The notes beneath the pieces are model-generated. The model saw nothing but the letters and a program-made list of their open reading frames with translations. It ran no database searches and was not told where the DNA came from. A DNA stretch of 63,189 nt, counting the filler, from an uncultured archaeon (lineage in GTDB: Archaea > Nanobdellota > Nanobdellia > Woesearchaeales > CAIVOO01): assembly GCA_903842985.1 (NCBI GenBank). It is 5 parts of 5 records of this genome, joined end to end, with 100 filler letters (N's around TTAATTAATTAA, not from the genome) between each part and the next. Parts side by side here need not be neighbours in the genome. Positions count along the whole stretch, not along the records: positions 21,989 to 44,086 come from CAIMOB010000039.1; 4 more parts are not named here. The stretch is one strand, 5' to 3'. Shown here piece after piece: positions 21,989 to 44,086 of this stretch. Each line of letters opens with the position of its first letter. The stretch's first letter is position 1. The position numbers were made by a program, and so were the translations under genes.

Positions 21989-23157
21989 TAAATTTGCTTG
22001 ACAATTTTCACGGTTTTATCCTGTTCTGAGTAAGTTTTAAAGTAAGTAAGCAAATCAGGTGTCAGCTGTTCAGCAACATCCTCCCATTTTGGGTCTATTT
22101 TCCCTGTGTTTTCCGCTTTTTTAATTGCTTTAAGGATGACTCCTTTTCCTATGGTATATGACGCAACTGCAAACTTTTTTTTGTCGCTATATCTATCAAA
22201 AGCGACAAGTAGATCTCCGAGATAATGCGCTTCTGCATCAATTTCTTTTTCAGGGATAAGTCTGTCGTCCTTTTCAATGCAATATCTCCTGCCGCTTCCT
22301 CCTGAAGGTGGGCAGTTGCTTCCGTCGCTGAGTTTGCAGTCGCAAAGCCCGTATTGATATGCAGTTGTCCTGCAGAACTGCGCTATTCCGCTACATCCTT
22401 GTTCTTTATTAACAAGATTCGGATTGCCGGTTGACTCCATCATTATTATTCCTGCAATCATTTCCTCAGGAACTTTGTATTTTACGCTTGCCTCCTTTAT
22501 TAGAGTACCATAATTCTTGTAAATATTTGCCAACGCATCTTTGTCTGTTTTTGCAGGAGTATACTTTACTAAAGGGATATAATTTACAGTAGGTATTGTT
22601 GGTGTTGTAGGTGTTGTAACAGGCACGCCAGCAACAGGTGTTTTTACAGCTTCTGCCCTGGAGATCACATCTATCTGAATGTTGTTTATTGCGCTCCCAA
22701 CAACAGTGAGTTTTGGAGAAACAGCTGAATATCTATAATCTGCTGGAAGGTTCAATTCTTTATAATTTGAAAGGTATATTTTTAAGCCCGCATCAATATG
22801 GTAAAGTATGCTGCTTTTAACATCTTCAGGCGAAGGGTAGCATTCTGCATCTTTTGCTGTCCAAAGATTAAATCCCATATAAGTTCCGCATTTCGGCTCA
22901 AAGCTGTACCCTCCTTCAAAAGCAGTGCCAACAACTGCCTGCTGCGCAGCGAGATTTGCAGAAGCATCGAGATAAACAAGCGAATTCTCTGCAGCCATCG
23001 CAGCCTCGAACACCTGCTGCTGCGATTCGCCTATGTTAGGCAGTTTCCCGAATTTCTGGTTTAAGAAAATAACTGCAGTTGTGAGAACTACGAATGCTAC
23101 CAGTACTAAACCAGGAACCCAGATTGGTATTATTGCTGCTTTTTTGTTTTTAATCAT
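21989..23157 (-). CDS. Prepilin-like protein with C-terminal lytic transglycosylase (SLT/GH23) domain; 3'-truncated at contig end
   Basis: MIKNKKA + hydrophobic helix; Pro/Thr linker; ASVKYKVPEEMIAGIIMMESTGNP (catalytic ES), GCSGIAQF, PEKEIDAEAHYL, ASYTIG. Confidence 0.85.
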
Positions 23158-23596
23158 ATGGCAAGTAGAGTATTATTTTTATTGTCCCTCCGTTTGGAGC
23201 TGGAATAAACGAAGACACCTGATTGTATCTGTATAAACTTGCTGCCCTGTTGATTGAAAGTTGCCTGTCTGGATAAAATATGTCTATGCCATACTTTGGA
23301 AACTTCCCAGTTATGCTGTTGGATTCTTCAATCAACTTAGTGTAATCGCCTGTAATATGAGCGTCTATAATCAGCTGCGACATCTGGATTTCTTTTCCAT
23401 CAACGCTGACAGGCGTCCTTAAATACGCCTCCAATACTGCATTTGTAACAAGCGTCTGCTGCCTTGCCTTTATATCTTCGCTTCCTCCAACTGTTGACTG
23501 TATAATATAATAAAAAACAATTATTATGAATATGAATATGATTATGCTCCAGAAATCAACAAGCGGTGCTGCTAGTATTGCTTTTTTGTTTCTCAT
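23150..23596 (-). CDS. Prepilin-like (class III signal) protein
   Basis: MRNKKA|ILAAPLVDFWSIIIFIFIIIVF. Confidence 0.7.
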   Translation of the reverse strand: MRNKKAILAAPLVDFWSIIIFIFIIIVFYYIIQSTVGGSEDIKARQQTLVTNAVLEAYLRTPVSVDGKEIQMSQLIIDAHITGDYTKLIEESNSITGKFPKYGIDIFYPDRQLSINRAASLYRYNQVSSFIPAPNGGTIKIILYLPYD

Positions 23597-23597
23597 G

Positions 23598-24119
23598 TTA
23601 GCTCTTTGGTATTAAAACAGTTATGTTCATTATTCCTTTGTTTATTTTTCCGTCTGGTGTGCTGTAAAGTGTATAAATGCTGAAGGGATACTCTGAAACA
23701 GCCCCTGCTCCGCTTTCGCCTGTCAGCGGGAACCATCCGTCATAGTAGGGCTTGTTGTAGTACGCCACAAACTTTACTGGCTTGCTGTCAAAATCATAAA
23801 TCTCGATTTTGGCTGCGAGCATTGTGTTCTTGTCACCGAAGCTGAATGCGCTGTCAAGTGTCATATCATTAAGCCTTCCAGTGTCAACTATTCCCAGCAT
23901 AGGCCTTCCTGAAAACTCATCATAATAAACAATCGAGTCTGGGGAATAAAGGAAATGGTTAACAAGGAGGTTTGCTTCAAGCTCTTCTGTATTCGACTGG
24001 GTTGTGATGCAGAGCCTTACTAAGGTTACCACTGAGACAATGACTATTATCAGGAATATTGCCCTTGCGATCCAGTAAATCATTTCAAATGTTGTTATCG
24101 CGCTTTTATCTCTTTTCAT
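23598..24119 (-). CDS. Prepilin-like protein
   Basis: MKRDKSA|ITTFEMIYWIARAIFLIIVIV (E at +5). Confidence 0.7.
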   Translation of the reverse strand: MKRDKSAITTFEMIYWIARAIFLIIVIVSVVTLVRLCITTQSNTEELEANLLVNHFLYSPDSIVYYDEFSGRPMLGIVDTGRLNDMTLDSAFSFGDKNTMLAAKIEIYDFDSKPVKFVAYYNKPYYDGWFPLTGESGAGAVSEYPFSIYTLYSTPDGKINKGIMNITVLIPKS

Positions 24120-24969
24120 TCAAAAACCTCTTTGCTGCCGCAGCAATCTGCTTCTCCAAACTTTTGCCTGCCTGCGTGATATCCAGATTGACAAGCACTG
24201 AAACATCATTTTTCAGCCTGTCTGACTCTGAAGGGAGTATTACCGAGCTTATCCCCTGGCTCTTCAGATTATTTGATATCAAACAGGCAAGCCTTATGCC
24301 CCTTAGCGTTGAAAGCCTTTCTGTTTTGTTCAATTTAAAATAAATTTCAGCGTTGACGTCGCTTACATAACCATACTCTAGGATTATCAAAGGGTTATTT
24401 TTGTCTGTTCCAATTTTCAACATTGAAAGCAGGACTTGTACGCCCAATTCCTTGCTGGGCGCATTAATCTCTACTGTATTGCCTGGCATCGAAATAACTG
24501 GGCAGACCCTGTAGTCAATATTTTCATCCAATGGGTTTATTTCAAAACTATCTGTCTTTTTGAAGACAAGCTTTGTTTTTGTTTCAGTAATTTCTTTTGA
24601 GATTGGACTGGCTGGGTAGATGAAATTCAGGTTCGTGCTGTTTGCAAACAAATAATAAATTGAGTATGTGAATGATACTGTTGCTTCGGGGTCGTAGACC
24701 TCAACCCTGTTGTTCTTGAAATTATACTTGAACCCGAATGACTCGTTGTAATAAAACAAAACATTTCCAGGCACAGACTGCATTGCATCAATCAGGAATG
24801 AAATGTCCTTTGCATGATGTATCTTATAATAAAGCGTGTCATCCTTTATTCTGCCTGCATATGACATCAGGGCAACAGCCACCATGCCCACGAAAAATAT
24901 CTCAGTAACGAGCAAAAGAATGTCCTGGAGTAATTCTGTGCCTCTTTTATGCTTTAAAAGCCTCATCAA
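24106..24969 (-). CDS. Prepilin-like protein
   Basis: KHKRG|TELLQDILLLVTEIFFVGMVAVAL. Confidence 0.7.
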   Translation of the reverse strand: MMRLLKHKRGTELLQDILLLVTEIFFVGMVAVALMSYAGRIKDDTLYYKIHHAKDISFLIDAMQSVPGNVLFYYNESFGFKYNFKNNRVEVYDPEATVSFTYSIYYLFANSTNLNFIYPASPISKEITETKTKLVFKKTDSFEINPLDENIDYRVCPVISMPGNTVEINAPSKELGVQVLLSMLKIGTDKNNPLIILEYGYVSDVNAEIYFKLNKTERLSTLRGIRLACLISNNLKSQGISSVILPSESDRLKNDVSVLVNLDITQAGKSLEKQIAAAAKRFLNEKR

Positions 24970-25005
24970 TGTAATTTAAAAGAAAGGTATTTATATTATT
25001 TTTGC

Positions 25006-25629
25006 TTATTTGCATTCGGACGAGTCCAATTGATGCCATCCTATTTTGCTTTTGCAATCTTCACTTGATAGAACGCTCTTATCCATGGTTGGTTTAGCAC
25101 TAGCCTCGGTACCTGACTTTATGTACTCGCAGCAAACAAGTTCCAGGGAGGAGGTTGAGCTTTCAATGTTTATAACCCCCCCCACTTTGTTCACTAACAA
25201 TAAACTCATCGTGCTAGTCACTGCTTTTTGACTCATGCCCGGAAGATGTATCGTAACTTTGTCTGCTTTAAAGCATTCTCTCTTCTTCCAACTGCCGCAA
25301 CCAATAGATGGGTCTCCTATTTTTGTTTTGCAGATGCAGATGCAGTTTTGCGGATAGCAGTCAGTATCCTGATCCATTGTCACAAGTTTTATATTATCTT
25401 TAAGGTTTATGTGATAAGGCACAGCTATTGGATTGTCATTGTCTTTCAAGTTGTTTATCTCCCACACAAGCCTTTCAAAATTATAATTGGTAACTGCGCT
25501 TGGCCCTGGGAAGATAACTGCAGAAACTTCATCATAAAACCCGAATAAAGCAACTATGATGAGCGCAGCCATGCAAATACCGAGTATCTGTGTAAGAGAA
25601 AGTCCAAGTACATCTGCTTTTTTGTTCAT
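25006..25629 (-). CDS. Cys-rich prepilin-like protein; probable start 25629
   Basis: MNKKA|DVLGLSLTQILGICMAALIIV; CYPQNCICIC. Confidence 0.7.
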   Translation of the reverse strand: MNKKADVLGLSLTQILGICMAALIIVALFGFYDEVSAVIFPGPSAVTNYNFERLVWEINNLKDNDNPIAVPYHINLKDNIKLVTMDQDTDCYPQNCICICKTKIGDPSIGCGSWKKRECFKADKVTIHLPGMSQKAVTSTMSLLLVNKVGGVINIESSTSSLELVCCEYIKSGTEASAKPTMDKSVLSSEDCKSKIGWHQLDSSECK

Positions 25630-25928
25630 TTGGCTGGTGCTGCAGGGGTTGTTGTTTGCTCTTTTTCTACAATACAGCAATAATCCCTTGTATTTGTTGT
25701 GTCTGTTTTTTCAGGACAGCCGTAATGCCAGAAAGCCTCTCCATGTTTAAAATCGCAATCTGCTTTGGTTTCGCATGTTCCGCCCCTTGATTGGCAGGAT
25801 GACAATCCCTCGTACCCTGTCTGCGCTGCTTTTGTCTGCTTGTAAAAGATATAGCCTGCTACAAAAAGAACCATCAGTGCAAGCACCATTCCAATTATTA
25901 CCCAGTTGACATCTGCTTTCTTTTTCAT
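25626..25928 (-). CDS. Small pilin-like protein with six-Cys tip
   Basis: MKKKA|DVNWVIIGMVLALMV; C-x6-C-x5-C-x12-C-x12-CC. Confidence 0.8.
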   Translation of the reverse strand: MKKKADVNWVIIGMVLALMVLFVAGYIFYKQTKAAQTGYEGLSSCQSRGGTCETKADCDFKHGEAFWHYGCPEKTDTTNTRDYCCIVEKEQTTTPAAPAK

Positions 25929-26236
25929 TTTCCAAGTTCAACGCAACATTTTCCAACTTCAGAGCTGCTTGGGTCTGAGTCATAGCCTGTTACCGGACTC
26001 CCTTTTGGAACGCATCCTTTTGCATAAACCAGCACTGGCCTTGACGGCTCCCACTGGTCGCAGTTCTGATCTGCCTGGAGCAGACATGTGCCGCCTCTTT
26101 CCTGGCAGCTCTGCCCTGTTGATTTTGCGAATATTGTTGATTTTCCCACAAATATGTAAATCAAGACAACGAGAACTACCAATACAATTATTGCGACTAT
26201 TATTGTCTCCAATGCTAATTCTGCTCCCCTTTTCAT
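25925..26236 (-). CDS. Small pilin-like protein with six-Cys tip; probable start 26236
   Basis: MKRG|AELALETIIVAIIVLVV; C-x6-C-x7-C-x15-C-x21-CC. Confidence 0.8.
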   Translation of the reverse strand: MKRGAELALETIIVAIIVLVVLVVLIYIFVGKSTIFAKSTGQSCQERGGTCLLQADQNCDQWEPSRPVLVYAKGCVPKGSPVTGYDSDPSSSEVGKCCVELGK

Positions 26237-26490
26237 CCCGCTTGTATGCAGCATGCGTATTGGCAGTCTGTTTTTTCAGGCACTGTTGCAAATCCACTAG
26301 GACACACAAGACCGCCTGAAATCTTCTCGCTGCACTGCCCTCCTTTTGAAGCGCAAGTTGTTGTTGATTTCCCGAAAATATTTAGTTTTCCTGTAAAAAT
26401 TGCTATCATTACAATAAGCACGATTAGGACAATAATTGCAATAACTATCACTGAAAGCGAAAGCTCTGACCCTCTTTTGTTTTTAGCCAT
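26233..26490 (-). CDS. Small pilin-like protein with six-Cys tip; probable start 26490
   Basis: MAKNKRG|SELSLSVIVIAIIVLIV; C-x6-C-x9-C-x12-C-x3-CC. Confidence 0.8.
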   Translation of the reverse strand: MAKNKRGSELSLSVIVIAIIVLIVLIVMIAIFTGKLNIFGKSTTTCASKGGQCSEKISGGLVCPSGFATVPEKTDCQYACCIQAG

Positions 26491-26791
26491 AGCAGCAAGG
26501 CGTGCAGTCAAAGCTCCCTGCAACTTCGCTATCTCCTTCCTTACAAGGACCGCAGTACCTTCCTGTTCCGGGAACTGCGCAGGTTGTTGCCTGGTATTGT
26601 TTTTCTGACTCTGTTGTTCCCTTGCCGAACTGCCCAATCTTGCCTGCAAATATGATTGCAAGAACAACCAGAACAATAAGTACAAGAATTGCTATGATTA
26701 TGACATTCAGCGGCATTCCCTGTGCTCTTTTAGAGCGCAGGTCTGATAATCTCGATGTAGTCGGGATTATCTTTATCTGTGCTTTTTTCAT
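26483..26791 (-). CDS. Small pilin-like protein with six-Cys tip and duplicated leader; probable start 26791
   Basis: MKKAQ...SKRA|QGMPLNVIIIAILVLIV; C-x8-C-x2-C-x12-C-x2-CC. Confidence 0.8.
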   Translation of the reverse strand: MKKAQIKIIPTTSRLSDLRSKRAQGMPLNVIIIAILVLIVLVVLAIIFAGKIGQFGKGTTESEKQYQATTCAVPGTGRYCGPCKEGDSEVAGSFDCTPCCYG

Positions 26792-26795
26792 CTTA

Positions 26796-27077
26796 TCAAG
26801 ATGATACTGATACGCAGCACCAGCCATCCTTTCCTCCAAACTCGAATTTCTCATCGCCGTTGAGGTCGCATGCTCGCTCAGACATTACCCTTTGGTACTG
26901 GCCTGTGCATTCTTCCTGTGTTGCAACACATGCCCCGCCGTAAACTGCGCATTTGTCAGATTCCTTGACAAATGTTCCTGTCTTGCCTGTGAATATTATC
27001 GCAAGAATCACAAGAACAAGTAGGCCAAGCGCTGCTATTATTATGACGTTCAATGGCATTCCCTGGGCTTTTTTCAT
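26796..27077 (-). CDS. Small pilin-like protein with six-Cys tip (candidate major pilin)
   Basis: MKKA|QGMPLNVIIIAALGLLV; C-x6-C-x6-C-x12-C-x16-CC; GAGGTG SD and own TATA box. Confidence 0.82.
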   Translation of the reverse strand: MKKAQGMPLNVIIIAALGLLVLVILAIIFTGKTGTFVKESDKCAVYGGACVATQEECTGQYQRVMSERACDLNGDEKFEFGGKDGWCCVSVSS

Positions 27078-27161: not shown

Positions 27162-28223
27162 TTAATTTACACATTCTTTAAATTTACCTTCGCTGTCCTT
27201 AACAATTGAGCATTTGCCGCACTTAGTGGCTATCTCATTGCATGTTGGAGAATAAATATCATTGTATTGGTTACAATTAACATCCTTGCAGTCTCTGCAT
27301 CCATGAAAGTTTATTGTATCTCCGGCATATGACTTCAGTATAAAATAAACCGTAAAACATTTTGGATTGTTTTTGCATGAACTCTCATCAGGCATAGTTT
27401 TGCACTCGTCTTTCACGCATTTTGCATCACCAACAATTGCAGTATCATCAATAAGATATTTTCCCCATCTGCACAGGTATTTCATCTTGCTTTCGCAGAT
27501 TTCTGAACCAACACTGCAGCAGTCCTTGTCAATGTTGCCGAGCGTTGCATTCAGCAGATTTACTTTATCAGCAATATCTTTAAAATCAGGTGGGACTTTC
27601 ATCCCACCAATAATCGGTTTTAAGGTCTTCAGCTGAATGCAATTATCATTTGCTGTTTTCTCAGCTGCAGCCAGCTCTGCATCAGTCAGCACATTTTTAT
27701 AATTTAGCTTGGCTGTTGGCTGCGGGAGCGAAGAATAATAGGTATAACGAGAAGTGGCGTATACATGTGCAAAGTCAAGCTTCATCTTCATTTCACTGAA
27801 CTTAATCCACTCGTCTGTGCCTGTTTCCTTTAATTTATTTTGTTCATCTGTTGCGTAGCCCTTTGCCTTATTGTAAAATCCTTCCACCTTTTTGCTTCGC
27901 TCCAACGCTGAATAGTCTGCAAAAGTTTTTACGCCTGCGCCAAAATAAACTTCAAATCCGCCTTTACTAAATTTTTCAACCCTTGCATCAATTTGTTTGA
28001 TTTGTGTATCAGGATTGTCTTCAAGCAGAATAGGAAGGTAATTCTGTTCTATTATGTCGGTTGGCGTCGTTGGGCCAATGAACCCTTTTGCCTTCTCCCC
28101 GAGAGATGTGGCGAATTCCTTTGCATAGCTGATTCCGCGCAGCCCAAAAAGCAGGACAAGGACAACTAATAAAACTAGCGCACCCTTGATTATATATTCC
28201 CAACTGTCTGCTTTCTTGTTCAT
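27162..28223 (-). CDS. Prepilin-like protein with helical stalk and Cys-rich C-terminus; probable start 28223
   Basis: MNKKA|DSWEYIIKGALVLLVVLV; many Cys in the last 120 aa. Confidence 0.7.
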   Translation of the reverse strand: MNKKADSWEYIIKGALVLLVVLVLLFGLRGISYAKEFATSLGEKAKGFIGPTTPTDIIEQNYLPILLEDNPDTQIKQIDARVEKFSKGGFEVYFGAGVKTFADYSALERSKKVEGFYNKAKGYATDEQNKLKETGTDEWIKFSEMKMKLDFAHVYATSRYTYYSSLPQPTAKLNYKNVLTDAELAAAEKTANDNCIQLKTLKPIIGGMKVPPDFKDIADKVNLLNATLGNIDKDCCSVGSEICESKMKYLCRWGKYLIDDTAIVGDAKCVKDECKTMPDESSCKNNPKCFTVYFILKSYAGDTINFHGCRDCKDVNCNQYNDIYSPTCNEIATKCGKCSIVKDSEGKFKECVN

Positions 28224-28378
28224 TTTCCAAACCTGAATAAGTTTGCCAGGCCATCCCACATCTTGTTGCCCACGCCTGTAATCGAGCCTATGACAACCAG
28301 CAGGACAACTACCAGCGCAAGCACCAGAATCCACTTGCCAATTTCTTCCCACGCCATTGACGCTTTTTTTCCTTTCAT
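28220..28378 (-). CDS. 52-aa minimal (Flp-sized) pilin-like peptide; not in ORF track
   Basis: MKGKKA|SMAWEEIGKWILVLALVVVLLVVIGSITGVGNKMWDGLANLFRFGK*; E at +5; ATGA overlap with the next gene. Confidence 0.8.
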   Translation of the reverse strand: MKGKKASMAWEEIGKWILVLALVVVLLVVIGSITGVGNKMWDGLANLFRFGK

Positions 28379-28404: not shown

Positions 28405-29328
28405 TTAATCTTTTGGCCTGTACTGCTGGACAACGGGGAATTCCTTGCAGCCGAGGTCCTCCAATGTCTTCTTATCATACTCTTTTATCAAAAATGATGA
28501 AATCCATTGCGGCTTTTCACCTGATGTGGCAACTTCGTACGCAGCAAATAGGCCGCCTGCTGCTCCAATTGCCAGCGCAACTGTGCCGCCAGAACCTATA
28601 ATCAGTGCTGCTGTTGCATAGGTTAGAACAGCGCCGCCTGCACCCAATTTGGCAGTTGATGACCAGCCGCCTCCAAAGTAATCCTTCATGTTCGAAAACC
28701 AGTCCTTTTCCTTGGTGTACACAAATATTATCGCATAATCTTTTGATGTGTCAATTTCATCTGCCACTTGCTTATCAGGTGGAAGCGTTTTCTTGCGCGC
28801 TTCAAATTCCTTAAGCAGATTGTCTGTGTCTGTCTTGTAAACTGCACATCTCTCCACATATTTCTCATTTGTTCCCGGCGCATTTGTTTTCAGAAGATAT
28901 TCATACATGCCAGGAACCTTTCCTTCTTTCTCAAAATTAACAACAGCATAAACTGCGCAGTATGTGCCTTCCTGCTTGAAAAGCTCATATTTCCCATTTT
29001 CAAAAACATCGCAGGCATCAAGCCAAAGGTCAGCCAGCTCCCTCTTAATCATCTCCTTCCCTGTTTCTGTGCCAGGGTCATAATTCAGTATAAAATAGTT
29101 TGTCTGGCATTTTAGGTCTATGGGAATTCCGACTGCTGCTGTCGTGGCGTGCATCAGGAAGCTCTTTTTGCACTCCTCTTTTTTAGCTAGATAGCCGGCA
29201 GTATTGCTTGATTTTGTTATGAAAATTATTAAAAGGATGATAAGAAACGCAACTAAAATAAATGCTGCAACCGCCTCATGTGACAGCCCTTTCTTAGTTA
29301 TAGATTTCTGTGCATGACTTCTCGACAT
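28405..29328 (-). CDS. Prepilin-like protein with internal Gly/Ala-zipper segment; paralog of 29294-30004; start uncertain
   Basis: TKKG|LSHEAVAAFILVAFLII; CKKS...LKC...KRELA...C; GAGGAVLTYATAALIIGSGGTVALAIGAAGGLF. Confidence 0.7.
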   Translation of the reverse strand: MSRSHAQKSITKKGLSHEAVAAFILVAFLIILLIIFITKSSNTAGYLAKKEECKKSFLMHATTAAVGIPIDLKCQTNYFILNYDPGTETGKEMIKRELADLWLDACDVFENGKYELFKQEGTYCAVYAVVNFEKEGKVPGMYEYLLKTNAPGTNEKYVERCAVYKTDTDNLLKEFEARKKTLPPDKQVADEIDTSKDYAIIFVYTKEKDWFSNMKDYFGGGWSSTAKLGAGGAVLTYATAALIIGSGGTVALAIGAAGGLFAAYEVATSGEKPQWISSFLIKEYDKKTLEDLGCKEFPVVQQYRPKD

Positions 29329-30004: not shown

Positions 30005-30120
30005 CCTAGTGACCCTGTTATTTTTTTGATTATAAGCCAGACAACCATGATTATTACTATAGTCAGTATTACTATCGCCAGCACCTTCATCATCTCTGAC
30101 TGCGCCTTCTTCAACTGCAT
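30001..30120 (-). CDS. 39-aa minimal pilin-like peptide; not in ORF track
   Basis: MQLKKA|QSEMMKVLAIVILTIVIIMVVWLIIKKITGSLG*; fills the gap and overlaps both neighbours. Confidence 0.75.
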   Translation of the reverse strand: MQLKKAQSEMMKVLAIVILTIVIIMVVWLIIKKITGSLG

Positions 30121-35489: not shown

Positions 35490-38400
35490 GATGATGTTGT
35501 TGATGTTGTTGCAGCAACACACTTTGTTGCGAGCGTTGCAAAGTGTATGTATTCGCAGAGGACAGCTTTGTTTGTCTTCTTTGCAAGACTGTATATGCAG
35601 TCATCTCTCAGCAGTTCTGTATAGTCGCATAGTGGGTAGAGTTCGTATCTTCCGATTTCAACTATGTAATCCTCAAAGCATTCTGCAGCTGAAACTTTGG
35701 TTTGGGCCTTGCAAGCACGGGTTATCAAAACTTTATAACAATCTTTAGGATTTTGGGATGAGCTGCATCTGCTCTCCATGTTTCCTGAATCAGTTATGAC
35801 CTCAGCTTCTTCCTGCGCCCCTTCGCCTGCGCATTCTCCCTCAATGCAGATAGTTACCCTTGGCCTTTCTATATCCCTTTCAATGTAATAGCTTTCTCTA
35901 AACTTATTTGATGCATTGTCTATTGCTGTTATGGAGAGCACGTTCGGCGTTACAGCACCGACTTCGCCGATAACTGTTGAATTGGCTTTAAAATAAAATG
36001 CGCCGGTTGTTGAGTTAAAGCAGTTTGTCTTCTTTATTGAAGTGCAGGGCTTAAGTATCTCGCCTATTTGAACTCCTGACCGTTCAAACATGATTGAATT
36101 TACTTTACTCTGGCCGACATCAGTTACAATCCCTGTGACAGATATCAGGTCTTCCTTCACAGTATATTTTTCATACTGGAATACTGGTTGTTCGCCCGGT
36201 GCCATTTCAAGCCCGCGAGTCAGTGTCTCTGACGCCCAATAGATTGGCTTTGCGTTTATTTTAACACTATCATCTAGCGATGGAGGTATTGTGTCAATTA
36301 TCAATGTCGCAGTATTGCTGTCATTATAGTTGCCTGCATAATCTGAGATGTTTGCCAGCAGTGTCCAGGTCTCGTCGTGGCTTAGGTAGATTCCCTCAGC
36401 TGAAAGATTTTCTTGCGTTATGCTGCCGAAGAAGAGGTCCATTGCGGTTTTTGAAACTATGTCTGTCACATAAGCCTGCTGTGTCCTGTTCAGCCTTACA
36501 TTCGCCTTTAATGGGTGCTTTTCAGAACTTCTCTTTATTATTGCTGAGAATTGTACTGGCGATGAATTTGATATGAATTTATTTGCAAGTTCGAAATCAA
36601 TTATTGCAGGCGGCGTGTGGTCAACTGCAAATAGGATGCTGTACTTTGCGTAATCTGATTTTCTTTCTGCAAGCTGCTTGAATGCAGTTATTATTATTTC
36701 ATAATCTCCTTCTGGAAGATTGGTTACCTCAGACGGCAGACTGCATGTAAAGTTGTTGTTTCCATTAGCTATGCAGCTCATATTGTGCGGAAGATTTCTC
36801 AGCCTCATTTCAGATATCGTTACAGGGACTGCGTCAGGGAACTTTACATTGAAATCAGGTCTTGGGAGCGGTGTCATGATGTAGCTGTCTGGCGCGACTC
36901 CGTAGCGGCCAATCACTGTAACATTCGGCCTTCTTGGCGCGAGATTGTCAACATTAAAATCGAATGTCTTGCCAGCACTGTTCCCTGCCAAATCAGTCAC
37001 ATTTAATGTGAGATTGTAATGCCCATTTTCAAATTTCTTAGGAACGTTTACTGTGTACGCCGGTGCAGACCCGCTCTTGGCAGAAGCTATGGTTGCGCCA
37101 TTTAATTCAACACTCCAGTTTAGCAAGTCAAACTGCTCGTAAATGGTAAAGTTAATTCCTTCAAGACTGTGGAAACTGCTTCCTGATGTCAACGCAATTG
37201 TTCCGGCATCAACAAGTGCAGTCTCGGATGTAATATCCGGAGGCGTTGTTTCATAAATTATATTGTACTTGTCTGTTGGCGCCCCTTCGTTTTCAGCCTT
37301 GTCCTGCTGTGAGACATAGAGAGTATTGTTGCTAAATGTTTCGTCTGCCAAAATGTCATTAAGTTCAACCTGCGCAATGAAGTTGTTGCTTGGAAGCTGT
37401 GTGTCATAGATTGTGAATGCTTCACCCTTGGCGACTGTTTTTTCGACGCCCGCATTCAACGTGAGCATTGCACCTGAGCCTGCAGGGGTTGCTCTGCACA
37501 TTCCAGAAGCAGAGTCAAGTGTTGTGCTACGAGGGCAGTCATTTTGTACAGGAGAATATTTGCACAACTTAGCAATTGTATTGTATGTTGTGCCGGAAGG
37601 ACAGTTTGGATTTGCTTCGCATAGTCCACTGGTTGCGTTTAATGTTGTTTCAGCAGGGCAGTCATCTTGCACAGGAGAATATCTGCATAATTTAGCGGGT
37701 ATACTATATCTTGTGCCGGAAGGACAGGTTGGAATTACTGAGCGACCTGGCCAATCCGTTACGTCGCACAATCCACTGGTTGCGTTTAATGTTGTTTCAG
37801 CAGGGCAGTCATCTTGCACAGGAGAGTATTCGCATAACTTATTTGTTGTATCATAAACTGTGCCGGAAGGACATGGATTTACTTCGCATAATCCACTGGA
37901 CGCATTTATTATTGTGCCAGCAGGGCAGTCATCTTGCACAGGAGAATATCTGCATGACATGTCTGCCACATTATATGCTGTGCTGGAAGGACATGAGTTT
38001 GCTTCGCATAATCCAGAAACTAAACTATATTCTGAGCCAGCAGGACAAGGAAGTGTAACGGCGATTATCTTATAGAACTTGCCATAATTACTGTATGACT
38101 GCCTTGAATGCGATTCAAATTTAACATACTTACCTTTGTATGCCTGCATATCTGCAAGTAAGATTCCTGAAACTATCAGCTCATTGCTGCCCTTGTTGAT
38201 TGTGAATGCTGCTACAAATCTTTCATCTGTTGTCGCGTTTGCAAGAGGCTGCTTGTATGTTGCAGCTGTTACTGGCGCATTATTTATCCAGAACTTTAAA
38301 GTTTCCCTTGTCTCTGCTGTTGTTCCGGAAATGTAAATCTGCTTGCTGTTTGTGTAATATGTAAAAGGAGTTTCGAAAAATATGTGAGGGTAGCTCTTGT

Positions 38401-41400
38401 CAATGTTTTCCATGGTTAGATATGTGTTAAGCTCAGGGTCAAGTACAGGAGTCACGTCAGAACCCCATCTGTCGACTGTGACTTTTATAGGCGCTGAAAC
38501 GCCTCTGTTGCCTGCCTCATCAATGACAGCAACAGTTATTGCGCCTTCGTTTCCATCTGGATTAAATGTTTCTGTCAGCGATGGCGGAAGCGCCACAGGA
38601 TATGTTTGTGTCAGTTCTGTTATAGACTGAGCTGTTCTATTGTCAACTTCAACACCATCTATCATGAATTCAATCTCTTTTATTTTTGACTGAGGAAGTT
38701 TTGTTGCTGCTGAATTATTCATCTTAATGGTGACATCTACTTTATTTTCTTTTGTAATCAAATCGCCGCTTGTTATTTCCACCCTTGGCGCGTCCTTGTC
38801 TACCTTTATCTGGTCGCATGGAACCTTTACTGCTTCCATGTTCCCGCCGCTGTCAACTGAAAAATAGCAGAGCTTTTTGTATTCGCTGACTGTAACCCCT
38901 TTTCCTGCAGATGTTGAAGGCGTGCAGTCTGTGTTTGAGATGCAGTATCTTGTGCTGTTGCAGCCGAACTCAGGATAAATGCCAAAGATTGGCGCGTCGT
39001 AGCAGTTAAATGCCACATCCCAACTTTTGCTCCAGTTCGTTGTGGCTTCTGCAGGAACTAGCCCTGTTACAGGCGCTGTCCTGTCAATTGAAAATGCTAT
39101 CTTTGGAGTCATCGAAGATTTTGTAAGCTGCTGCGTGTCAAGGCTCTTGCATCTCACATAGTAGTTAAATGCATTGTTGTCATATCCCCCAAGGTTTTCC
39201 TGAGCAGTATGGTGCCTTTTGTCTGTTGATGTGGTTGAAAAAGACTTTGCTGAACTGAATTGGCTTTCTGAGATTATTGGCGCGCTATCATACCTGCAAT
39301 CTGCGTCAATCATTGTTTCAACAGACAATGTCACAGAATTGTAATTTATTGTTCCGGACGGCTTGCCGTTGAAAACAAGATTGTCCTTGTCAACAAGTAT
39401 TACTTTCTGGGCGCTTGTTGGATTTCCAACCAAGTCATAGCAGGTGTAGTTGTAGTAGTAGATTCCGTCAGTCAGCTGGTAGGTCCTGCTGAAGCTCCTT
39501 GCAGGCTCGTACAGGAGCAGATTGTTCTCTGTCTGCAATGCTTCCCCATCCTGGCTTTTCATTGCTGCATCGCAGGATAGAATATCATCCGAGCTTAAGG
39601 TAACAATTATGTCTGTTCCAATCCCGTAGAGCCAGTTGAATGCTACTGTCGGCGGAATTTTGTCTATTGTAACTGTGAATGGCCTGATTATCTCAAGGTT
39701 ATCTGCTGTGTCCTGCGAATAATAATTAACAGTATAATCCTGCTGTGTATTTGGAGGAATGTCTAAGTATTTTATCTTCCCTTCGCTTGCCTCTGTGAAA
39801 CAAGATTCAGATGGAGTTCCTGCGCAGAGGAATGTCTTTGCGTCGCTTACAGGAGTGCTGTTGAGCGGGTCATAAACAACATAGTCAAAGTTTATTTCAT
39901 TTGCCGTCTTTGGATGAAGCACAACAGTGTAAGGCGGCTGCATGTCTGTCGGATTCGGGTCTCTAAGATTATCATCATTTGCGTCCTTTACGCACTTGAC
40001 TGGATAACTAGTTAAATTAAATTTGCATAGCCCAAAACCAAAGTAATCTGTGCTTTTATTAGCAGGATTAATTGAGTTTGTCACATACTTGTTGGCGCCC
40101 ATATCAACTTTATTTGTGTTTGTTGTTCCGCAGCCATTGTTTGAGCTGTCTTTATAATAAACCTCGCAGCTTGAATCCTTTTTGTTTACGCAGTGCTTGC
40201 CTGTCGTATAGTAGCAGGATGAACTTGTTCCTGCACTGTTACTTCCGTATGCAGTGCATAAGTTCTGGCTGCAGTTAAGGAACAAATCATTGAATTTGCC
40301 TGACTTTTCGCATCTGCTGCAGTCGCGGTTTTTTTCGTCATCTGGCACGCAGACTCCCATTCCAAGGTCAGAGAATGTGGTGTGCGCAACCCAGTGGCAG
40401 GGCATATCCTTTGCACACTTGTTCTGGACGCACGCGGATTCAGACTGGTAATCATAACAGCTTTTTACATTCTTGCAGCTGAAATACTTGTTGACTGCTG
40501 ATTTTGTGTAATCAACATAGCATGCCCTTGCTTCTGGAAATAATGACATATCTGCACTGCATGACACAAGCTCATTTACCCCCTCCCTTGGCACATTAAG
40601 GAAGCCTGCATAGCTGAACATTCCGAGCGGAGGGTTGCACTGCGAGCAGTCAACATCATTAACATAAACTGTTGTTATTTGCGTTTTATACATGCAGATT
40701 GAATTCTTATTTTTTGTTGTGTCACTTATCTCTTTCACTGTATTGTTTGCTCCGCACTTGCTCCTTGTATTATTTACGCAGACTTCATCGCTTCCAGGCA
40801 CCTTTGCAAAGCACTCTGCCTCTCCAAGCGAGATTGTTTTTGGTTCTGAGAATACCTTGTCAAGCAAAAAATTATCATAGTAGGCCATTATCTGGTAATT
40901 GTAAGTTTCTCCTGCCTCAACAGTTAAGTCTGTGTATGACCCTGCATTGTTTAAAATAGAAATTCCGTCTGCTATCGGCTGGAGTGTGCAACCAGCTCCC
41001 TTGCATCTGTAGACATAAACAAGGCCAGGACTGCATTCTGTATTGAATGAAATTCTAACATTTGTTCTTTTGTTTGTTAAATCTTTAAGAAGCTCTATGC
41101 TTGTTATGTTCGGCGATGCAACACCAGTAAGGCACCTTGCAGGAAGAAGCGGGATGTTCTCGCCTGTTGTTGTGGCGACTCCGGATGTCCTTGAACCCTC
41201 AACATATCCTGCCTTCTGCGTGATTAGTGTGTAGTTTGCTGCCATCACTCCTTCAATTTTGTAATTCCCGCTTGAATCTGTCAGAGCTGACTTAACAAGT
41301 TCTGCAAGCGGTGCAGGAATAAAGACAGATGCATCGGCTATCCCATCGCCGGTCATGCTGTCTGTTACCCTTCCGGAGATTGATTTGTCTGCAGCTGAAA

Positions 41401-42631
41401 TCTGTTTCAGCGCTATTGGCACTGTTTTTGTTGGAGCATCAAGCGTTGCTGCTATTGTTTGTGTTTCATAAGTTTCCTTGAAAATAACAATTGTGTAATT
41501 TGCCCTCATCAAGTTTGCAATGAACTGCCCGCTTGAATCTGTTGTTCCTCTTGCAGACTCTGCAACAGCGTCTATTTTTTTAATTACAATTGTTGCGCCT
41601 CCAATGTTTGCTGGAGGAGCTGCGGTGTCTTTGACAATTACTGTCAATGCTGTCATTTCAGCTGCCTTTGACGGCAGGATAAAGTTCTTTGTTATTGTCG
41701 CCTGGATTATGTTTACTACATCGCTTGTTTGCGTAAGGTCTGTACTCGTGCTTGGAGGAGTTGCGCTGGCGGTGTAGGTGCCGATTGGAATGTTTGAAAT
41801 CTCATATCTCCCGTTAGCTCCGGTTATGTTTGAAAAGCCGGCTATTGAAACTATTGCATTTGCAACAGGAACGCTTGCTGAGTTGTAAACAATCCCAGAC
41901 AGCTTTCCGACGACAGCTGCCGGCGGGTTTATCTGGAGCAGACTGAAGTCCTTGCCAGAAAGCGATGTTGCCACATCAGTCAATGTAATTGTCTTGCTTT
42001 CGTAGCCTGGCTTTGAAGCAGAAAGTGTGTAAGTGCCCTGCGGCATGTTTGTTAATGCATATGTTCCATCTGAAATTGTTGTTGTTGTTTTGCCTGCTGC
42101 TGTGACTGTCACGTTTTCAAGAACTCTATTGCTTGTGTCCTTTACAGTGCCTGATATGGTTATTGTAGCTTCCCTAGGCTGTGTCAGCCCTGTGCAAATG
42201 TCCTGATTTGTTGTTGCGCGGAACCAGCTCATGTATGTGGTCTTCAGCGCCTGGCACTGCGCCTGCCCTTCTCTCATATAATAAAAGCCTATTGAATAGA
42301 CATCACCATGGCAGAAAACGCATCCTGTCCTGCAGTCTGAATAAAGTGAGCAGCTGCCTGTCACAAATTTTGAAGGCGCTGAGCAAAGTTTTGGAGAAGA
42401 ATATGTGCCGACTTTTGCAGATTTGCAAGTGTCAATGCAGCAGGAGTCTGTAACAGCGTAGCAGTTTGCAGAGCACTGCGCAGCTGAATCATAGACATTG
42501 CAGTTTGTTGCTGTTGCTGTGCAGAAAAGTGAAGGGTTTGATATGTCAAAACAGCAGCCTGCATTTGCTGAGAAACTAAGAAGTGGTAAAAGTATGAGGA
42601 TTGAAAATATCAAAACGTATTTTTTATACAT
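35486..42631 (-). CDS. Giant (~2380 aa) secreted/surface adhesin-like protein: Cys-rich N-terminus, four carboxypeptidase-regulatory-like beta-sandwich repeats, Cys-rich region, Ig-like domains, internal Cys tandem repeat
   Basis: Signal MYKKYVLIFSILILL...ANA; ISGTVKD...TT..DG.Y...GTYTL.ASK.GY repeats; DxxPP/DxAGN Ig-like motifs. Confidence 0.85.
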   Translation of the reverse strand: MYKKYVLIFSILILLPLLSFSANAGCCFDISNPSLFCTATATNCNVYDSAAQCSANCYAVTDSCCIDTCKSAKVGTYSSPKLCSAPSKFVTGSCSLYSDCRTGCVFCHGDVYSIGFYYMREGQAQCQALKTTYMSWFRATTNQDICTGLTQPREATITISGTVKDTSNRVLENVTVTAAGKTTTTISDGTYALTNMPQGTYTLSASKPGYESKTITLTDVATSLSGKDFSLLQINPPAAVVGKLSGIVYNSASVPVANAIVSIAGFSNITGANGRYEISNIPIGTYTASATPPSTSTDLTQTSDVVNIIQATITKNFILPSKAAEMTALTVIVKDTAAPPANIGGATIVIKKIDAVAESARGTTDSSGQFIANLMRANYTIVIFKETYETQTIAATLDAPTKTVPIALKQISAADKSISGRVTDSMTGDGIADASVFIPAPLAELVKSALTDSSGNYKIEGVMAANYTLITQKAGYVEGSRTSGVATTTGENIPLLPARCLTGVASPNITSIELLKDLTNKRTNVRISFNTECSPGLVYVYRCKGAGCTLQPIADGISILNNAGSYTDLTVEAGETYNYQIMAYYDNFLLDKVFSEPKTISLGEAECFAKVPGSDEVCVNNTRSKCGANNTVKEISDTTKNKNSICMYKTQITTVYVNDVDCSQCNPPLGMFSYAGFLNVPREGVNELVSCSADMSLFPEARACYVDYTKSAVNKYFSCKNVKSCYDYQSESACVQNKCAKDMPCHWVAHTTFSDLGMGVCVPDDEKNRDCSRCEKSGKFNDLFLNCSQNLCTAYGSNSAGTSSSCYYTTGKHCVNKKDSSCEVYYKDSSNNGCGTTNTNKVDMGANKYVTNSINPANKSTDYFGFGLCKFNLTSYPVKCVKDANDDNLRDPNPTDMQPPYTVVLHPKTANEINFDYVVYDPLNSTPVSDAKTFLCAGTPSESCFTEASEGKIKYLDIPPNTQQDYTVNYYSQDTADNLEIIRPFTVTIDKIPPTVAFNWLYGIGTDIIVTLSSDDILSCDAAMKSQDGEALQTENNLLLYEPARSFSRTYQLTDGIYYYNYTCYDLVGNPTSAQKVILVDKDNLVFNGKPSGTINYNSVTLSVETMIDADCRYDSAPIISESQFSSAKSFSTTSTDKRHHTAQENLGGYDNNAFNYYVRCKSLDTQQLTKSSMTPKIAFSIDRTAPVTGLVPAEATTNWSKSWDVAFNCYDAPIFGIYPEFGCNSTRYCISNTDCTPSTSAGKGVTVSEYKKLCYFSVDSGGNMEAVKVPCDQIKVDKDAPRVEITSGDLITKENKVDVTIKMNNSAATKLPQSKIKEIEFMIDGVEVDNRTAQSITELTQTYPVALPPSLTETFNPDGNEGAITVAVIDEAGNRGVSAPIKVTVDRWGSDVTPVLDPELNTYLTMENIDKSYPHIFFETPFTYYTNSKQIYISGTTAETRETLKFWINNAPVTAATYKQPLANATTDERFVAAFTINKGSNELIVSGILLADMQAYKGKYVKFESHSRQSYSNYGKFYKIIAVTLPCPAGSEYSLVSGLCEANSCPSSTAYNVADMSCRYSPVQDDCPAGTIINASSGLCEVNPCPSGTVYDTTNKLCEYSPVQDDCPAETTLNATSGLCDVTDWPGRSVIPTCPSGTRYSIPAKLCRYSPVQDDCPAETTLNATSGLCEANPNCPSGTTYNTIAKLCKYSPVQNDCPRSTTLDSASGMCRATPAGSGAMLTLNAGVEKTVAKGEAFTIYDTQLPSNNFIAQVELNDILADETFSNNTLYVSQQDKAENEGAPTDKYNIIYETTPPDITSETALVDAGTIALTSGSSFHSLEGINFTIYEQFDLLNWSVELNGATIASAKSGSAPAYTVNVPKKFENGHYNLTLNVTDLAGNSAGKTFDFNVDNLAPRRPNVTVIGRYGVAPDSYIMTPLPRPDFNVKFPDAVPVTISEMRLRNLPHNMSCIANGNNNFTCSLPSEVTNLPEGDYEIIITAFKQLAERKSDYAKYSILFAVDHTPPAIIDFELANKFISNSSPVQFSAIIKRSSEKHPLKANVRLNRTQQAYVTDIVSKTAMDLFFGSITQENLSAEGIYLSHDETWTLLANISDYAGNYNDSNTATLIIDTIPPSLDDSVKINAKPIYWASETLTRGLEMAPGEQPVFQYEKYTVKEDLISVTGIVTDVGQSKVNSIMFERSGVQIGEILKPCTSIKKTNCFNSTTGAFYFKANSTVIGEVGAVTPNVLSITAIDNASNKFRESYYIERDIERPRVTICIEGECAGEGAQEEAEVITDSGNMESRCSSSQNPKDCYKVLITRACKAQTKVSAAECFEDYIVEIGRYELYPLCDYTELLRDDCIYSLAKKTNKAVLCEYIHFATLATKCVAATTSTTSS
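37490..38050 (-). repeat. About 4.5 tandem 40-49-aa Cys repeats (CP.GT.Y....LC.YSPVQDDCPA.T.LNA.SGLC)
   Basis: Units at 37531, 37654, 37801 and 37921; a 54-bp segment is identical at 37625-37678 and 37772-37825. Confidence 0.92.
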
Positions 42632-42687
42632 CAATAACACCACTTTTTAAAGAATTTAAAGCAATTTTATTTATAAAGGTTTTGGAA

Positions 42688-44086
42688 TTAAGTGCAGGTT
42701 GTAGCAACATTGGCGCTGCAAGTTACAATTGTACCAGAGGCATCTTTATAACCGCAGCACCTAGTGTTAGTTTTGTCCCACTTAGCACCCATATAATTGC
42801 ATTTGACACATAAATCGCAGTTTGTTGCAAAAGTACCTACCACTACGTTCTTGCACGAATCATTTATGCCATTTCCATTAGAATCAAACATTCGAACTCC
42901 CAAAGATTGTGTTGGATTGCAACCTGATTTCAAGATAGAGCCTGTTGATACAAGTGGCTGGCAGGCGCCTCCAGCAACAGTTGTTGTGCAGTTGCTTACC
43001 TTGCCTGGAGTGCATATGTCCTGAACAGTTGGACCCATGAGTGTTATTGTTGCCTGCTGGTCTGCAAGTCCGCTGACATCCCAGCAGTTTATCGGTTCCT
43101 CTGTATAAGGAGGAGGTGTCGGCGAAGTTTCAAGCTTGCAGAAATATTCGTTGACAGCATATTTGCCTGAACAGCTGTCTTTTAGATTGTATGCAGCAGG
43201 ACTGCAGATGCCTTCAATGCTGGGGTCAAGATTCCACTGCTTAACATTGCAGCCGCCGCTCATTCCATTTATGCTTCCTGCTATTTCTGGGTGTCGCCCC
43301 CCGTCTGAATCATCGCACATCTGTGCATCTTTGTAGCAGTCTGTGCAGTCTGTAACCTTGCTGCATTTGCCTGTTCCATCGCATGTTGCCTTGCAGCTGT
43401 ATTGTGTGACAACTGCGGGGTCTGTCGGCGCAGTTGCATAAGCATTATTTCCAAGACTATCGACACATCTTGGGGTATAGGAGCAGTTTCCTTTTGCGCC
43501 TGCAATGCCCATCACCTTTTCCCAGGTTGTTCCTGCAGGAACACTCACACATTCTGAATGATCCATTGGAGTCATGCTGCAGCCAGCGCATTTTTCATTG
43601 GGTCCTTCTGTTTTTGTGCAGCCAATTGTTTTTATTCTCACTTCAACAGGCGTGCCTGTGCAGGTGTTTCCGCTATCACCTGAACATGTTCCGTTTAGGT
43701 AGCGCTCGAAAACGTAACTTCTATTTTCAGCAGGTATTTGACTAATAAGGTAACTGATAAATACTGGTTGTTTATTGCCATCAATAATTTTATATCTTAT
43801 CATCGGTGTTTGTAAAATGCCTAAGTGATAGACAGATGCATTAAAGTTTGCGTTGTAACAGCCGTATTCTTTGACACTCTGGTAGCAGACTGTTCCAGGA
43901 CCTGCATAACTGCCCCAACCGCCAGCACTGGGTGCCGGAGGATTTGTGTTCGGTGAATTCCCAACGCAGCAGATGTGGTCTGCCTGGTACGGGTCGCTTG
44001 CATTGAATGGGAACGGCGCGTCATGCATTATTGGCGGGGTTGTATCTGAGTGCGGAAGGCACTGATAAAATGTCATGTTGACTGTA
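42688..44086 (-). CDS. Cys-rich surface protein, 5'-truncated at contig end
   Basis: Open frame up to the gap; dense Cys, CDDSDGG...G...DSC...VNEYFC module. Confidence 0.75.

Follow-up and report, generated by a model that had tools for sequence, protein, structure and literature searches.

A conserved surface locus of Woesearchaeales archaea with a leader-bearing carrier of a lytic transglycosylase and, in relatives, of other putative peptidoglycan hydrolases

Modular type IV pilins are established in bacteria, as described for PilB and PilC of Streptococcus sanguinis, and such subunits are proposed to sit at the filament tip, with incorporation into the filament demonstrated for PilB (Raynaud et al. 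2021, PMC8179133). Here we describe g17, the last gene of a 19-gene archaeal operon, whose predicted protein follows the same plan: behind a class III (type IV prepilin) leader and its hydrophobic helix comes a small carrier module, to which a functional module is grafted by a short linker. The gene lies in a stretch of 63,189 bases (hereafter the window) that joins five contigs of a Woesearchaeota-type genome (G000; 878,927 bp in 60 contigs, 92.65% complete, 1.64% contaminated), one of which, C39, is exactly positions 21989-44086 (22,098 bp). Unlike PilB and PilC, g17 is archaeal, its carrier is unannotated and matches no solved pilin, and the payloads of its family are predicted peptidoglycan hydrolases. 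The main text of Raynaud et al. (PMC8179133) mentions neither peptidoglycan nor hydrolase, and in its architecture table the peptidoglycan hydrolase accessions that we tried are absent except for one M23 entry on the 'Unclear' sheet.

Murein transglycosylases of Woesearchaeota and Pacearchaeota, proposed to bind or degrade bacterial walls, have been published before (Castelle 2021, PMC8204110; Vigneron 2022, PMC9723730), the initial annotation of this stretch having noted such enzymes in Woesearchaeota, and g17 shares with them the lineage, the enzyme class and the bacterial-wall proposal. The main texts of these two studies contain no occurrence of pili or pilin and treat the transglycosylase alone, whereas the g17 enzyme appears to be one of many swappable payloads on a class-III-leader carrier that ends a 19-gene operon. 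Archaeal peptidoglycan hydrolases kill bacteria and are prominent and diverse in Nanoarchaeota according to Strock et al. 2025 (PMC12352652), who likewise describe archaeal murein hydrolases aimed at bacteria; they counted hydrolases with a wall-binding module and tested secreted enzymes of halophiles, and pili, pilins and class III signals go unmentioned in the parts of that paper considered here.

Archaeal type IV filaments, for their part, combine class III leaders with an A24 prepilin peptidase, a VirB11-type ATPase and a TadC/FlaJ platform, and their pilin loci can lie apart from the ATPase locus (Makarova 2016, PMC4858521; PMC13705601). A 2026 census (PLoS Genet, PMC13705601) describes them as widespread except in Asgard and DPANN archaea; hydrolase payloads go unmentioned in the parts of Makarova 2016 and of the census considered here, which leave aside the S10 figure of DPANN loci in the latter. 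The C39 array resembles these systems in its class III leaders, in the A24 peptidase of the genome and in an ATPase and platform encoded elsewhere, and differs in that no C39 protein reaches the threshold of a known pilin family. A structural N-terminal module that docks into a fibre or needle and carries interchangeable murein hydrolases is familiar from FlgJ (rod cap and muramidase), which cuts the producer's own wall, from phage tail lysins and from hydrolases fused to the spike of the type VI secretion system; unlike in those cases, the producer of the C39 proteins appears to be without murein, and machines and carrier are unrelated. Our literature search found no paper linking pilin-type leaders with murein hydrolases in DPANN archaea, and the carrier domain and the 19-22-gene operon, both unannotated, are not described in the literature searched. 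What the locus combines are known kinds, namely modular pilin-type subunits and archaeal murein hydrolases.

The g17 carrier and its transglycosylase module

The three parts of g17 are the following (aa, amino acids).

22648..23157, minus strand: g17 carrier module, aa 1-170, with leader MIKNKKA/A, a membrane helix at aa 10-36 and a conserved alpha/beta domain
22573..22647, minus strand: g17 linker, about aa 171-195, Pro/Thr-rich and flexible
21989..22572, minus strand: g17 SLT/GH23 module, about aa 196-389, with the Glu241 codon at 22435-22437 and the C-terminus truncated by the contig end

The SLT/GH23 domain that the initial annotation had placed behind a Pro/Thr linker is borne out by Pfam: SLT (PF01464) scores 51.6 bits at aa 219-353, where the cut-off is 21.3, and the match spans positions 2-113 of the 117 in the profile. 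In an AlphaFold2 model (mean pLDDT 84.8, with 37 homologues as input), a membrane helix (aa 10-36) is followed by an alpha/beta domain (44-156), a disordered stretch (167-195, pLDDT <50; Pro and Thr make up 39% of aa 165-200) and a confident helical domain (205-388, pLDDT mostly 89-98 with a dip to 64-78 at aa 271-290). The fold check suggested at the outset gave, for this helical domain, Foldseek matches to the lytic transglycosylases MltF, MltE, MltC, MltD and Slt70 (42 hits at E <=0.001), with MltF 4oxv as the best (E 6.2e-07) and MltE 2y8p at a target-normalised TM score of 0.60. In the alignment to MltC 9vi7, IIMMESTGNP of g17 lies on IMQIESSFNP, which places Glu241-Ser242 on the Glu-Ser motif of MltC, where the Glu is the catalytic acid. 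Because of the Pfam match, the lysozyme-like fold matches and the aligned Glu-Ser motif, we assign the C-terminal domain to the family-1 lytic transglycosylases, and by these predictions it looks catalytically competent.

Folded alone (pLDDT 87.8), the carrier consists of the helix at aa 10-36, a short break, helices at 44-80 and 110-135 and two hairpins, and its best similarity to a named ESM Atlas cluster, 0.84, serves as a lead only. A complex prediction of the carrier with the soluble parts of g15 and g16 scored 0.12 against a mark of 0.32, which speaks neither for nor against a contact. With a class III leader and carrier, a linker and a C-terminal enzyme domain that is not peculiar to pili, g17 has the layout of a modular pilin.

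The whole g17 protein was searched in 201 genomes of the order, three of them unpublished, and matched 132, in most cases over aa 1-170 only and in frames of 180 to more than 1400 aa. An alignment of 37 N-terminal regions shows G43, C90 and C106 to be invariant and W99 and P108 to be nearly so. A carrier profile matches 238 of 301 genomes sampled across the phylum (two of them unpublished), nearly always with one copy per genome, as well as 2132 representatives in a library of 1.84 billion proteins (1494 at E <=1e-10 and 382 at E <=1e-30), and in all of the 150 best of these 2132 the domain is N-terminal. The leader recurs in these proteins: 77 carrier homologues from genomes have [KR][KR][GAS] in 69 cases and [KR][GAS] in 74, the -1 residue being G in 35, A in 28 and S in six, and among the 150 best library representatives the leader is present in 136 and a small -1 residue follows K/R in 143. 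By these sequence comparisons, the first 170 residues of g17 are a real conserved, mostly single-copy N-terminal carrier domain. A carrier homologue with 29% identity over aa 1-140 is also found on a 6.6-kb contig labelled 'uncultured Methanosarcinales archaeon' (L057, CAYMFI010000032.1), which may be wrongly binned in a metagenome-assembled genome of Methanosarcinales.

Interchangeable payloads on the carrier

We read the C-terminal parts of carrier homologues by Pfam in five samples. The first comprises 17 of the 19 best full-length matches and is biased towards SLT (L022 was omitted as it has no N-terminus, L028 as it is cut by the locus end); it holds SLT in ten, M23 in one above the cut-off and in two below, Glucosaminidase in one below and no family in three, which gives 11/17 with a payload above cut-off. 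The second, 19 matches to the carrier part only, has M23 in five, 3D in three, M15/VanY in two and Amidase_2, SLT and NlpC/P60 with a GDSL esterase in one each, with none in six and a payload above cut-off in 13/19. The third consists of 30 further same-order homologues chosen blind to payload, ten long frames being included deliberately, and at least one wall hydrolase stands above the cut-off in 20 of them, many with several: the combinations include M15_4+SLT, Amidase_3+M74, M23+SLT, NlpC/P60+SLT, Amidase_2+3D+GDSL, C39_2+NAGPA+SLT and, in a protein of 1855 aa, NlpC/P60+GDSL+SLT+YkuD. The fourth, ten homologues of 240-295 aa from other orders of the class, shows no Pfam domain and a payload in 0/10. 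In the fifth, the 110 best library representatives, a wall hydrolase family is found at E <=1e-5 in 43, that is, in 42 of the 79 proteins of at least 320 aa and in one of the 31 shorter ones, the only other family being fn3 (four proteins).

A murein hydrolase is thus recognisable in 44 of the 66 same-order carrier homologues of the first three samples. The payload families above cut-off in this order are SLT, M23, Amidase_2, Amidase_3, 3D, M15/VanY/M15_4, M74 and NlpC/P60, with YkuD and GDSL alongside, and the payload classes together cut every kind of peptidoglycan bond. As judged from family matches, relatives of g17 carry at least eight other peptidoglycan hydrolase classes (GH73 being listed among them), often several in tandem, and mostly without a known wall-binding domain. 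That the enzymes change while their position stays fixed argues for selection on wall cutting in itself and for a carrier role of the N-terminal domain. Since the homologues in other orders are short and payload-free, this suggests that the machine is older than its anti-murein use and that the hydrolases were grafted on within this order. The attack on bacterial walls that the initial annotation proposed for the transglycosylase gains weight here, as relatives bear other classes of murein hydrolase on the same carrier domain.

The archaeon itself appears to make no murein, because Mur_ligase_M, Transgly (GT51) and Transpeptidase have no match in the 92.65%-complete genome, control genomes being positive, which agrees with the premise of that proposal. 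This result bears on another explanation, in which the enzyme makes space in the producer's own wall, as VirB1, FlgJ and BfpH do, and was inherited with a bacterial pilus operon. An SLT gene inside a filament or secretion operon is indeed classical in bacteria; however, own peptidoglycan synthesis of the kind that such space-makers presuppose was not found in this genome, the carrier and the other 18 families of the array are unannotated with archaeal look-alikes, and the 0/10 payloads in other orders make the payload probably a later addition and not something inherited with the operon. We regard own-wall remodelling as close to excluded, and a payload directed at the walls of bacteria is the reading we retain.

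Further observations concern the enzymes themselves. Among the giant payload proteins (L084, L085, L086 and L048), SLT or NlpC/P60 is repeatedly accompanied by GDSL/SGNH esterase domains. Bacterial Ape enzymes remove O-acetyl groups that block transglycosylases, and by analogy the GDSL esterases might strip such groups. The window also encodes a second SLT protein, without carrier domain, at 52035-54329 (minus strand; 764 aa, SLT at aa 591-705), which has a hydrophobic N-terminal region, possibly with several membrane helices, and is followed by two genes with lipoprotein-like N-termini ending in Cys. On another contig of the genome, C9, there is a strong match to prolipoprotein diacylglyceryl transferase (Lgt; L098:6933-7718, 261.7 bits) alongside genes with lipobox-like signals, and this suggests a bacterial-type lipoprotein maturation in G000.

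The leader-bearing array and the filament machinery

All genes of C39 lie on the minus strand, and 19 co-oriented ones run from 32685 down to 21989, namely 17 of 85-389 aa and two mini-genes of 52 and 39 aa, with intergenic gaps of at most 84 bases and many junctions that overlap by 4-14 bases. Each starts with ATG and a short basic leader that ends in a small residue, followed by about 20 hydrophobic residues; [KR][GAS] stands directly before the hydrophobic stretch in 19/19 and [KR][KR][GAS] in 18/19, the exception being g15 (RDKS), and the -1 residue is A in 12, G in four and S in three. The run of 19 consecutive, often overlapping prepilin-like genes described in the initial annotation is thereby confirmed and its reading of the leaders as class III supported, by the consensus of the FlaFind literature. 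In a crude census of the whole genome, 232 of 1009 open reading frames have an N-terminal hydrophobic segment and 43 of these 232 have [KR][KR][GAS] before it, including nine on C38 (the canonical pilus locus) and 12 on C39, the latter an undercount as the caller dropped or over-extended some C39 genes. The genes upstream of g17 are:

32203..32685, minus strand: g01, 160 aa, leader MKKA/FAYEIFIYVL...; orthologues in the relatives G093, G017 and G078
31140..32189, minus strand: g02, 349 aa, leader NRKA then FVEIQFNWVFVLIVG; best-conserved member of the cluster (G093, E 2.2e-83; G017, E 5.2e-48)
30620..31138, minus strand: g03, 172 aa, leader MKKS then QLKIGESIAVLFIFF
30111..30617, minus strand: g04, 168 aa, leader MKRA then QTEMLGMAIVILLL
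30001..30120, minus strand: g04b, mini-gene of 39 aa, leader MQLKKA then QSEMMKVLAIVIL; the least certain gene of the array
29294..30004, minus strand: g05, 236 aa, leader MKKS then QMQWTLGTILLFAF
28405..29328, minus strand: g06, 307 aa, leader ...TKKG then LSHEAVAAFILVAF
28220..28378, minus strand: g06b, mini-gene of 52 aa, leader MKGKKA then SMAWEEIGKWILVLAL; after presumed cleavage barely more than a helix
27162..28223, minus strand: g07, 353 aa, leader MNKKA then DSWEYIIKGALVLLVV; Cys-rich C-terminus
25626..27077, minus strand: g08-g12, five tandem small Cys-rich pilin-like paralogues of 93, 102, 85, 103 and 100 aa, with leaders KKA/QG, KRA/QG, KRG/SE, KRG/AE and KKA/DV, respectively
25006..25629, minus strand: g13, 207 aa, leader MNKKA then DVLGLSLTQILGICMAAL
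24106..24966, minus strand: g14, 286 aa, leader ...HKRG then TELLQDILLLVTEIFFVG
23598..24119, minus strand: g15, 173 aa, leader MKRDKS then AITTFEMIYWIARAIFLII
23150..23596, minus strand: g16, 148 aa, leader MRNKKA then ILAAPLVDFWSIIIFIF; overlaps g17 by 8 bases

The synteny survey proposed along with that annotation, run here on relatives, shows that the order of the array is kept, with orthologues of 16/19 genes in G093 and of 17/19 in G017. Because these are distinct orthologues in the same order, the locus appears from its sequence to be a conserved machine of distinct subunits and not an array of pilin variants. The look-alikes of g02 in the ESM Atlas, at 0.97-0.98, are all unnamed archaeal clusters, mostly of Nanobdellota. 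Orthologues of g06b, of 51 aa, stand at the same position in G093 and G017, and tandem paralogues like g08-g12, which are candidates for the major subunit, are also present in G093, G078 and G017. In these three relatives, phmmer gave no orthologue of g07, and none of g04b was detected. Of 41 loci examined, 18 have a member of the g15 family upstream of their terminal gene and 14 have a member of the g16 family, many loci of this survey being too short to hold the g15 gene. A weak match of g04 to the minor pilin PilV TIGR02523 (20.4 bits) lies below the cut-off of 52.2.

Two side observations concern the small Cys-rich genes and their leaders. The product of g12 (25626-25928, minus strand) has a below-cut-off match to the plant defensin-like family AtDEF-like (20.7 bits vs 25), which probably reflects only a disulfide-rich knot. 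The proteins encoded at window 26483-26791 (minus strand) and at C24:7331- of G000 have a double leader in common, MKKAQIKIIPTTSRLSDLRSKRAQ and MQKKGQTKIIPTLSGLSRLRSKRAQ, with two consecutive KK[AG]Q-type sites ahead of the helix.

The machinery for processing and assembling such subunits, which the initial annotation had proposed to look for, is encoded elsewhere in the genome. There is one Peptidase_A24 (prepilin peptidase; C54, 49.9 bits, 279 aa), and C38 carries a T2SSE ATPase (543 aa, 104 bits), two T2SSF platform proteins and four or five pilin-like genes, which have the same leader type as the C39 array. A second T2SSE ATPase (755 aa, 55-57 bits) is encoded at the end of C27. A third T2SSE match, on C4, was rejected as a pilus ATPase; it is a PIN-KH-ATPase protein.

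We call the C39 proteins pilin-like because the leader and helix are conserved, the genome has peptidase and assembly genes, small paralogues stand in tandem and the mini-genes encode little but a helix, and not because of a recognised pilin fold. Several results weigh against a wall-cutting enzyme borne on a pilus: all 19 proteins stay below the cut-offs of the Pfam and NCBIfam pilin families; the g17 carrier has no Foldseek match to a solved structure at E <=0.001, and no solved pilin is matched; no ATPase or platform gene is found in the C39 locus, in its extension on contig C24 or in the contexts read in G093 (about 55 kb), G078 and G017 (20 kb each); no hydrolase is recognisable in 22 of the 66 same-order homologues and in 37 of the 79 long representatives; and basic residues ahead of a membrane helix are also found in plain signal-anchor proteins. 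An NCBIfam scan of all 22 proteins of the extended locus yielded nothing above cut-off, and g17 has no Pfam or NCBIfam match for the bacterial N-terminal methylation/pilin motif IPR012902, presumably the equivalent of Pfam N_methyl; to our knowledge, archaeal pilins are generally without the N_methyl motif.

The proteins could instead form a membrane-anchored surface complex with no fibre, whose anchors are either uncleaved or cleaved and retained in the membrane, as in the bindosome of Sulfolobus, where leaders are cleaved and the proteins stay in the membrane. The hydrolase would then be a tethered ecto-enzyme whose action is confined to wall debris or to places where a bacterium is in contact with the archaeal membrane. 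This would fit a carrier whose modelled helix is separate from a globular domain and which resembles no solved pilin, the lack of pilin hidden Markov model matches and of an ATPase in the locus, a long flexible linker suited to a tethered enzyme, and the fact that archaeal prepilin peptidases also process substrate-binding proteins outside pili, as reported in Makarova 2016 (PMC4858521). A small -1 residue after K/R (74/77, 143/150 and 19/19), however, is hard to explain by the positive-inside rule alone, the tandem small paralogues resemble major-pilin arrays, and in G093 an A24 peptidase gene adjoins the cluster. The 39- and 52-aa genes would moreover encode bare helices, which is what Flp-type pilins are. 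We treat a tethered complex as the main, though less likely, alternative to an assembled fibre.

Contig origin, neighbouring surface proteins and the proposed apparatus

The five contigs of the window are separated by four spacers, each made up of 44 N, TTAATTAATTAA and 44 N, and as the parts are separate contigs, genes outside 21989-44086 are no physical neighbours of the C39 genes.

18248-18347, 21889-21988, 44087-44186 and 59935-60034: artificial spacers; gene neighbourhoods across them are artificial

Both ends of C39 truncate a terminal gene, the SLT gene at its own 3' end and a gene for a 462-aa piece at its own 5' end. In tetranucleotide composition C39 correlates with the remaining genome at 0.928, the fifth lowest value among 38 contigs of at least 5 kb, which would favour a bacterial or wrongly binned contig, the outcome that would have undone the initial annotation. 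The lowest value (0.85) belongs to C24, which is likewise packed with surface-protein genes, so it is gene content that the deviation follows. C24 shares its last 141 bases exactly with the end of C39, and its start is identical to that of C9, which gives a chain C9-C24-C39; on C9 (correlation 0.988) lie housekeeping genes, among them those for RNase P subunit p30, pyruvate:ferredoxin oxidoreductase and ThiI. Once these overlaps appeared, the tetranucleotide deviation was dropped as a sign of misbinning. In other genomes of the order the operon is found on contigs of 104-205 kb beside TopoVI A/B, RadA and RPA: in G093, of the same family, RPA follows the operon with topoisomerase VI A and B near, and in G017 RPA and RadA follow it. 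Contig C2 of the same genome as C39 carries RPA, the same small hydrolase and RadA in that order and, by synteny with G093, probably follows the SLT end of C39, which has no end overlap with any other contig of the genome. A database homologue is labelled 'Candidatus Woesearchaeota archaeon'. Because of the 141-bp overlaps, the archaeal flanks in relatives and the synteny with C2, C39 is archaeal and chromosomal and not misbinned; misbinning is close to excluded, even more firmly than own-wall remodelling. As a side result, exact 141-bp end overlaps join four contig pairs (C9-C24, C24-C39, C33-C40 and C38-C49), so the assembly can be extended: C9-C24-C39 comes to about 57 kb, and C40 (window 44187-59934) joins C33.

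Three large Cys-rich or Ig-like surface proteins had been noted upstream of the array, and all three are present.

42688..44086, minus strand: Cys-rich fragment of 462 aa, C-terminal portion of a protein that is about 1182 aa long; no Pfam family
35486..42643, minus strand: giant secreted surface protein with Sec-type signal; frame of 2385 aa, of which 2381 aa follow from a start at 42631, the likely one
32682..35522, minus strand: surface protein with Sec-type signal; frame of 946 aa, of which 935 aa follow from a start at 35489, the likely one

Given the join of C24 and C39, the 462-aa piece is the C-terminus of a protein that starts at the end of C24, where its N-terminus has a class-III-type leader (...SKRA/QITVFIIIG...); tblastn with the 925-aa orthologue from G093 matches both contigs. 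The two complete proteins carry ordinary Sec-type signals and not class III leaders. The giant has four CarboxypepD_reg domains, a Big_13 Ig-like domain and Cys-rich repeats (G093 orthologue, E 1.8e-189), and the 935-aa protein has three Cys-rich DVDCGG modules, a C-terminal membrane helix, a Pro-rich/basic tail and no Pfam family (G093 orthologue, E 2.9e-177). Past the helix of the latter (32682-35489, minus strand), a Pro-rich stretch leads into repeated ...LERLG.../...EKLG... units, a tail that is presumably cytoplasmic. C24 adds two further leader-bearing genes (167 and 417 aa), which brings the extended locus of C39 and C24 to 22, and it also encodes a giant of at least 1834 aa with TSP_3, PKD and Ig domains. 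In G093 the matching extension ends at the Peptidase_A24 gene, which scores 27.4 bits where the cut-off is 26.5. Directly after its carrier-SLT gene, G093 has a gene (L031:14123-19336) for a secreted protein of 1737 aa that combines GH3, Metallophos and NAGPA and may handle sugar products of wall cleavage, and the start of C2 in G000 (L100:84-1592) encodes a 502-aa relative of its C-terminal part.

These neighbours would suit a secretion or scavenging device, in which a type-II-secretion-like pseudopilus or a bindosome-like assembly exports or positions the giant proteins, and the hydrolases supply amino sugars and amino acids by digesting free peptidoglycan fragments in the sediment, no other cell being attacked. 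In the loci read, genes for giant secreted proteins always adjoin the cluster, the 1737-aa protein of G093 could process sugar products, and four DNA sequencing runs from one study, labelled freshwater sediment, contain 0.23-0.46 of the sampled words from the stretch (no RNA run is listed as containing it). The tandem payloads NlpC/P60+GDSL+SLT+YkuD, Amidase_3+M74 and M23+SLT, on the other hand, look by analogy more like lysins for opening intact sacculi than like enzymes for scavenging, and separate non-carrier SLT proteins encoded in the genome, one of them SLT+LysM, could serve the scavenging role. A device of this kind seems improbable to us.

We consider it very likely that g17 is an exported, helix-borne carrier of an active-type transglycosylase whose target is bacterial peptidoglycan, within a conserved multi-subunit surface system; the bacterial wall would be the substrate of the payload because the archaeon appears to be without murein. 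That the subunits are processed by the A24 peptidase and assembled into an enzyme-presenting fibre has, in our estimate, an even chance. In this proposal, some 19-22 different class III-leader proteins would form the core of a conserved surface machine that this class of Nanobdellota shares. The A24 prepilin peptidase of the genome would remove the short basic leaders, and the type-IV-filament ATPase and platform encoded elsewhere (on C38, perhaps C27) would use the hydrophobic N-terminal helices to assemble the subunits into a fibre resembling a pilus or pseudopilus, the bulk of which would be the small tandem Cys-rich proteins, with the other proteins in low copy. Where the cell meets a bacterial host or prey, such a machine would display wall-cutting enzymes with which to breach it, anchor in it or feed on it. 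Tentatively, the locus may be an ancient organelle of about twenty subunits derived from type IV filaments, whose terminal subunit in Woesearchaeales became a socket for murein hydrolases, a pilus-borne drill with an enzyme set matched to the wall of the partner; this fuller picture is possible, though less probable than the fibre as such.

The hosts and lifestyle of Woesearchaeota-type DPANN archaea are in question, and we know of no cultured pair. The locus turns a vague hint, a murein transglycosylase in some genomes, into a testable object: a mostly single-copy carrier at a fixed place in a conserved operon, with a payload that, where recognised, is nearly always a peptidoglycan hydrolase. 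The modular-pilin idea would thereby be extended to archaea and to enzymatic, wall-degrading payloads. The carrier can serve as a marker gene for finding such interactions in metagenomes, its family as a natural library of archaeal wall-cutting enzymes and the payload type as a possible readout of the wall chemistry of the partner. The pilus-borne drill, if true, would be the first defined molecular apparatus for episymbiosis or predation of an archaeon on a bacterium. In summary, the locus argues that bacteria, and not archaea, are the partners of many of these lineages, and the question of their bacterial partners becomes directly testable.

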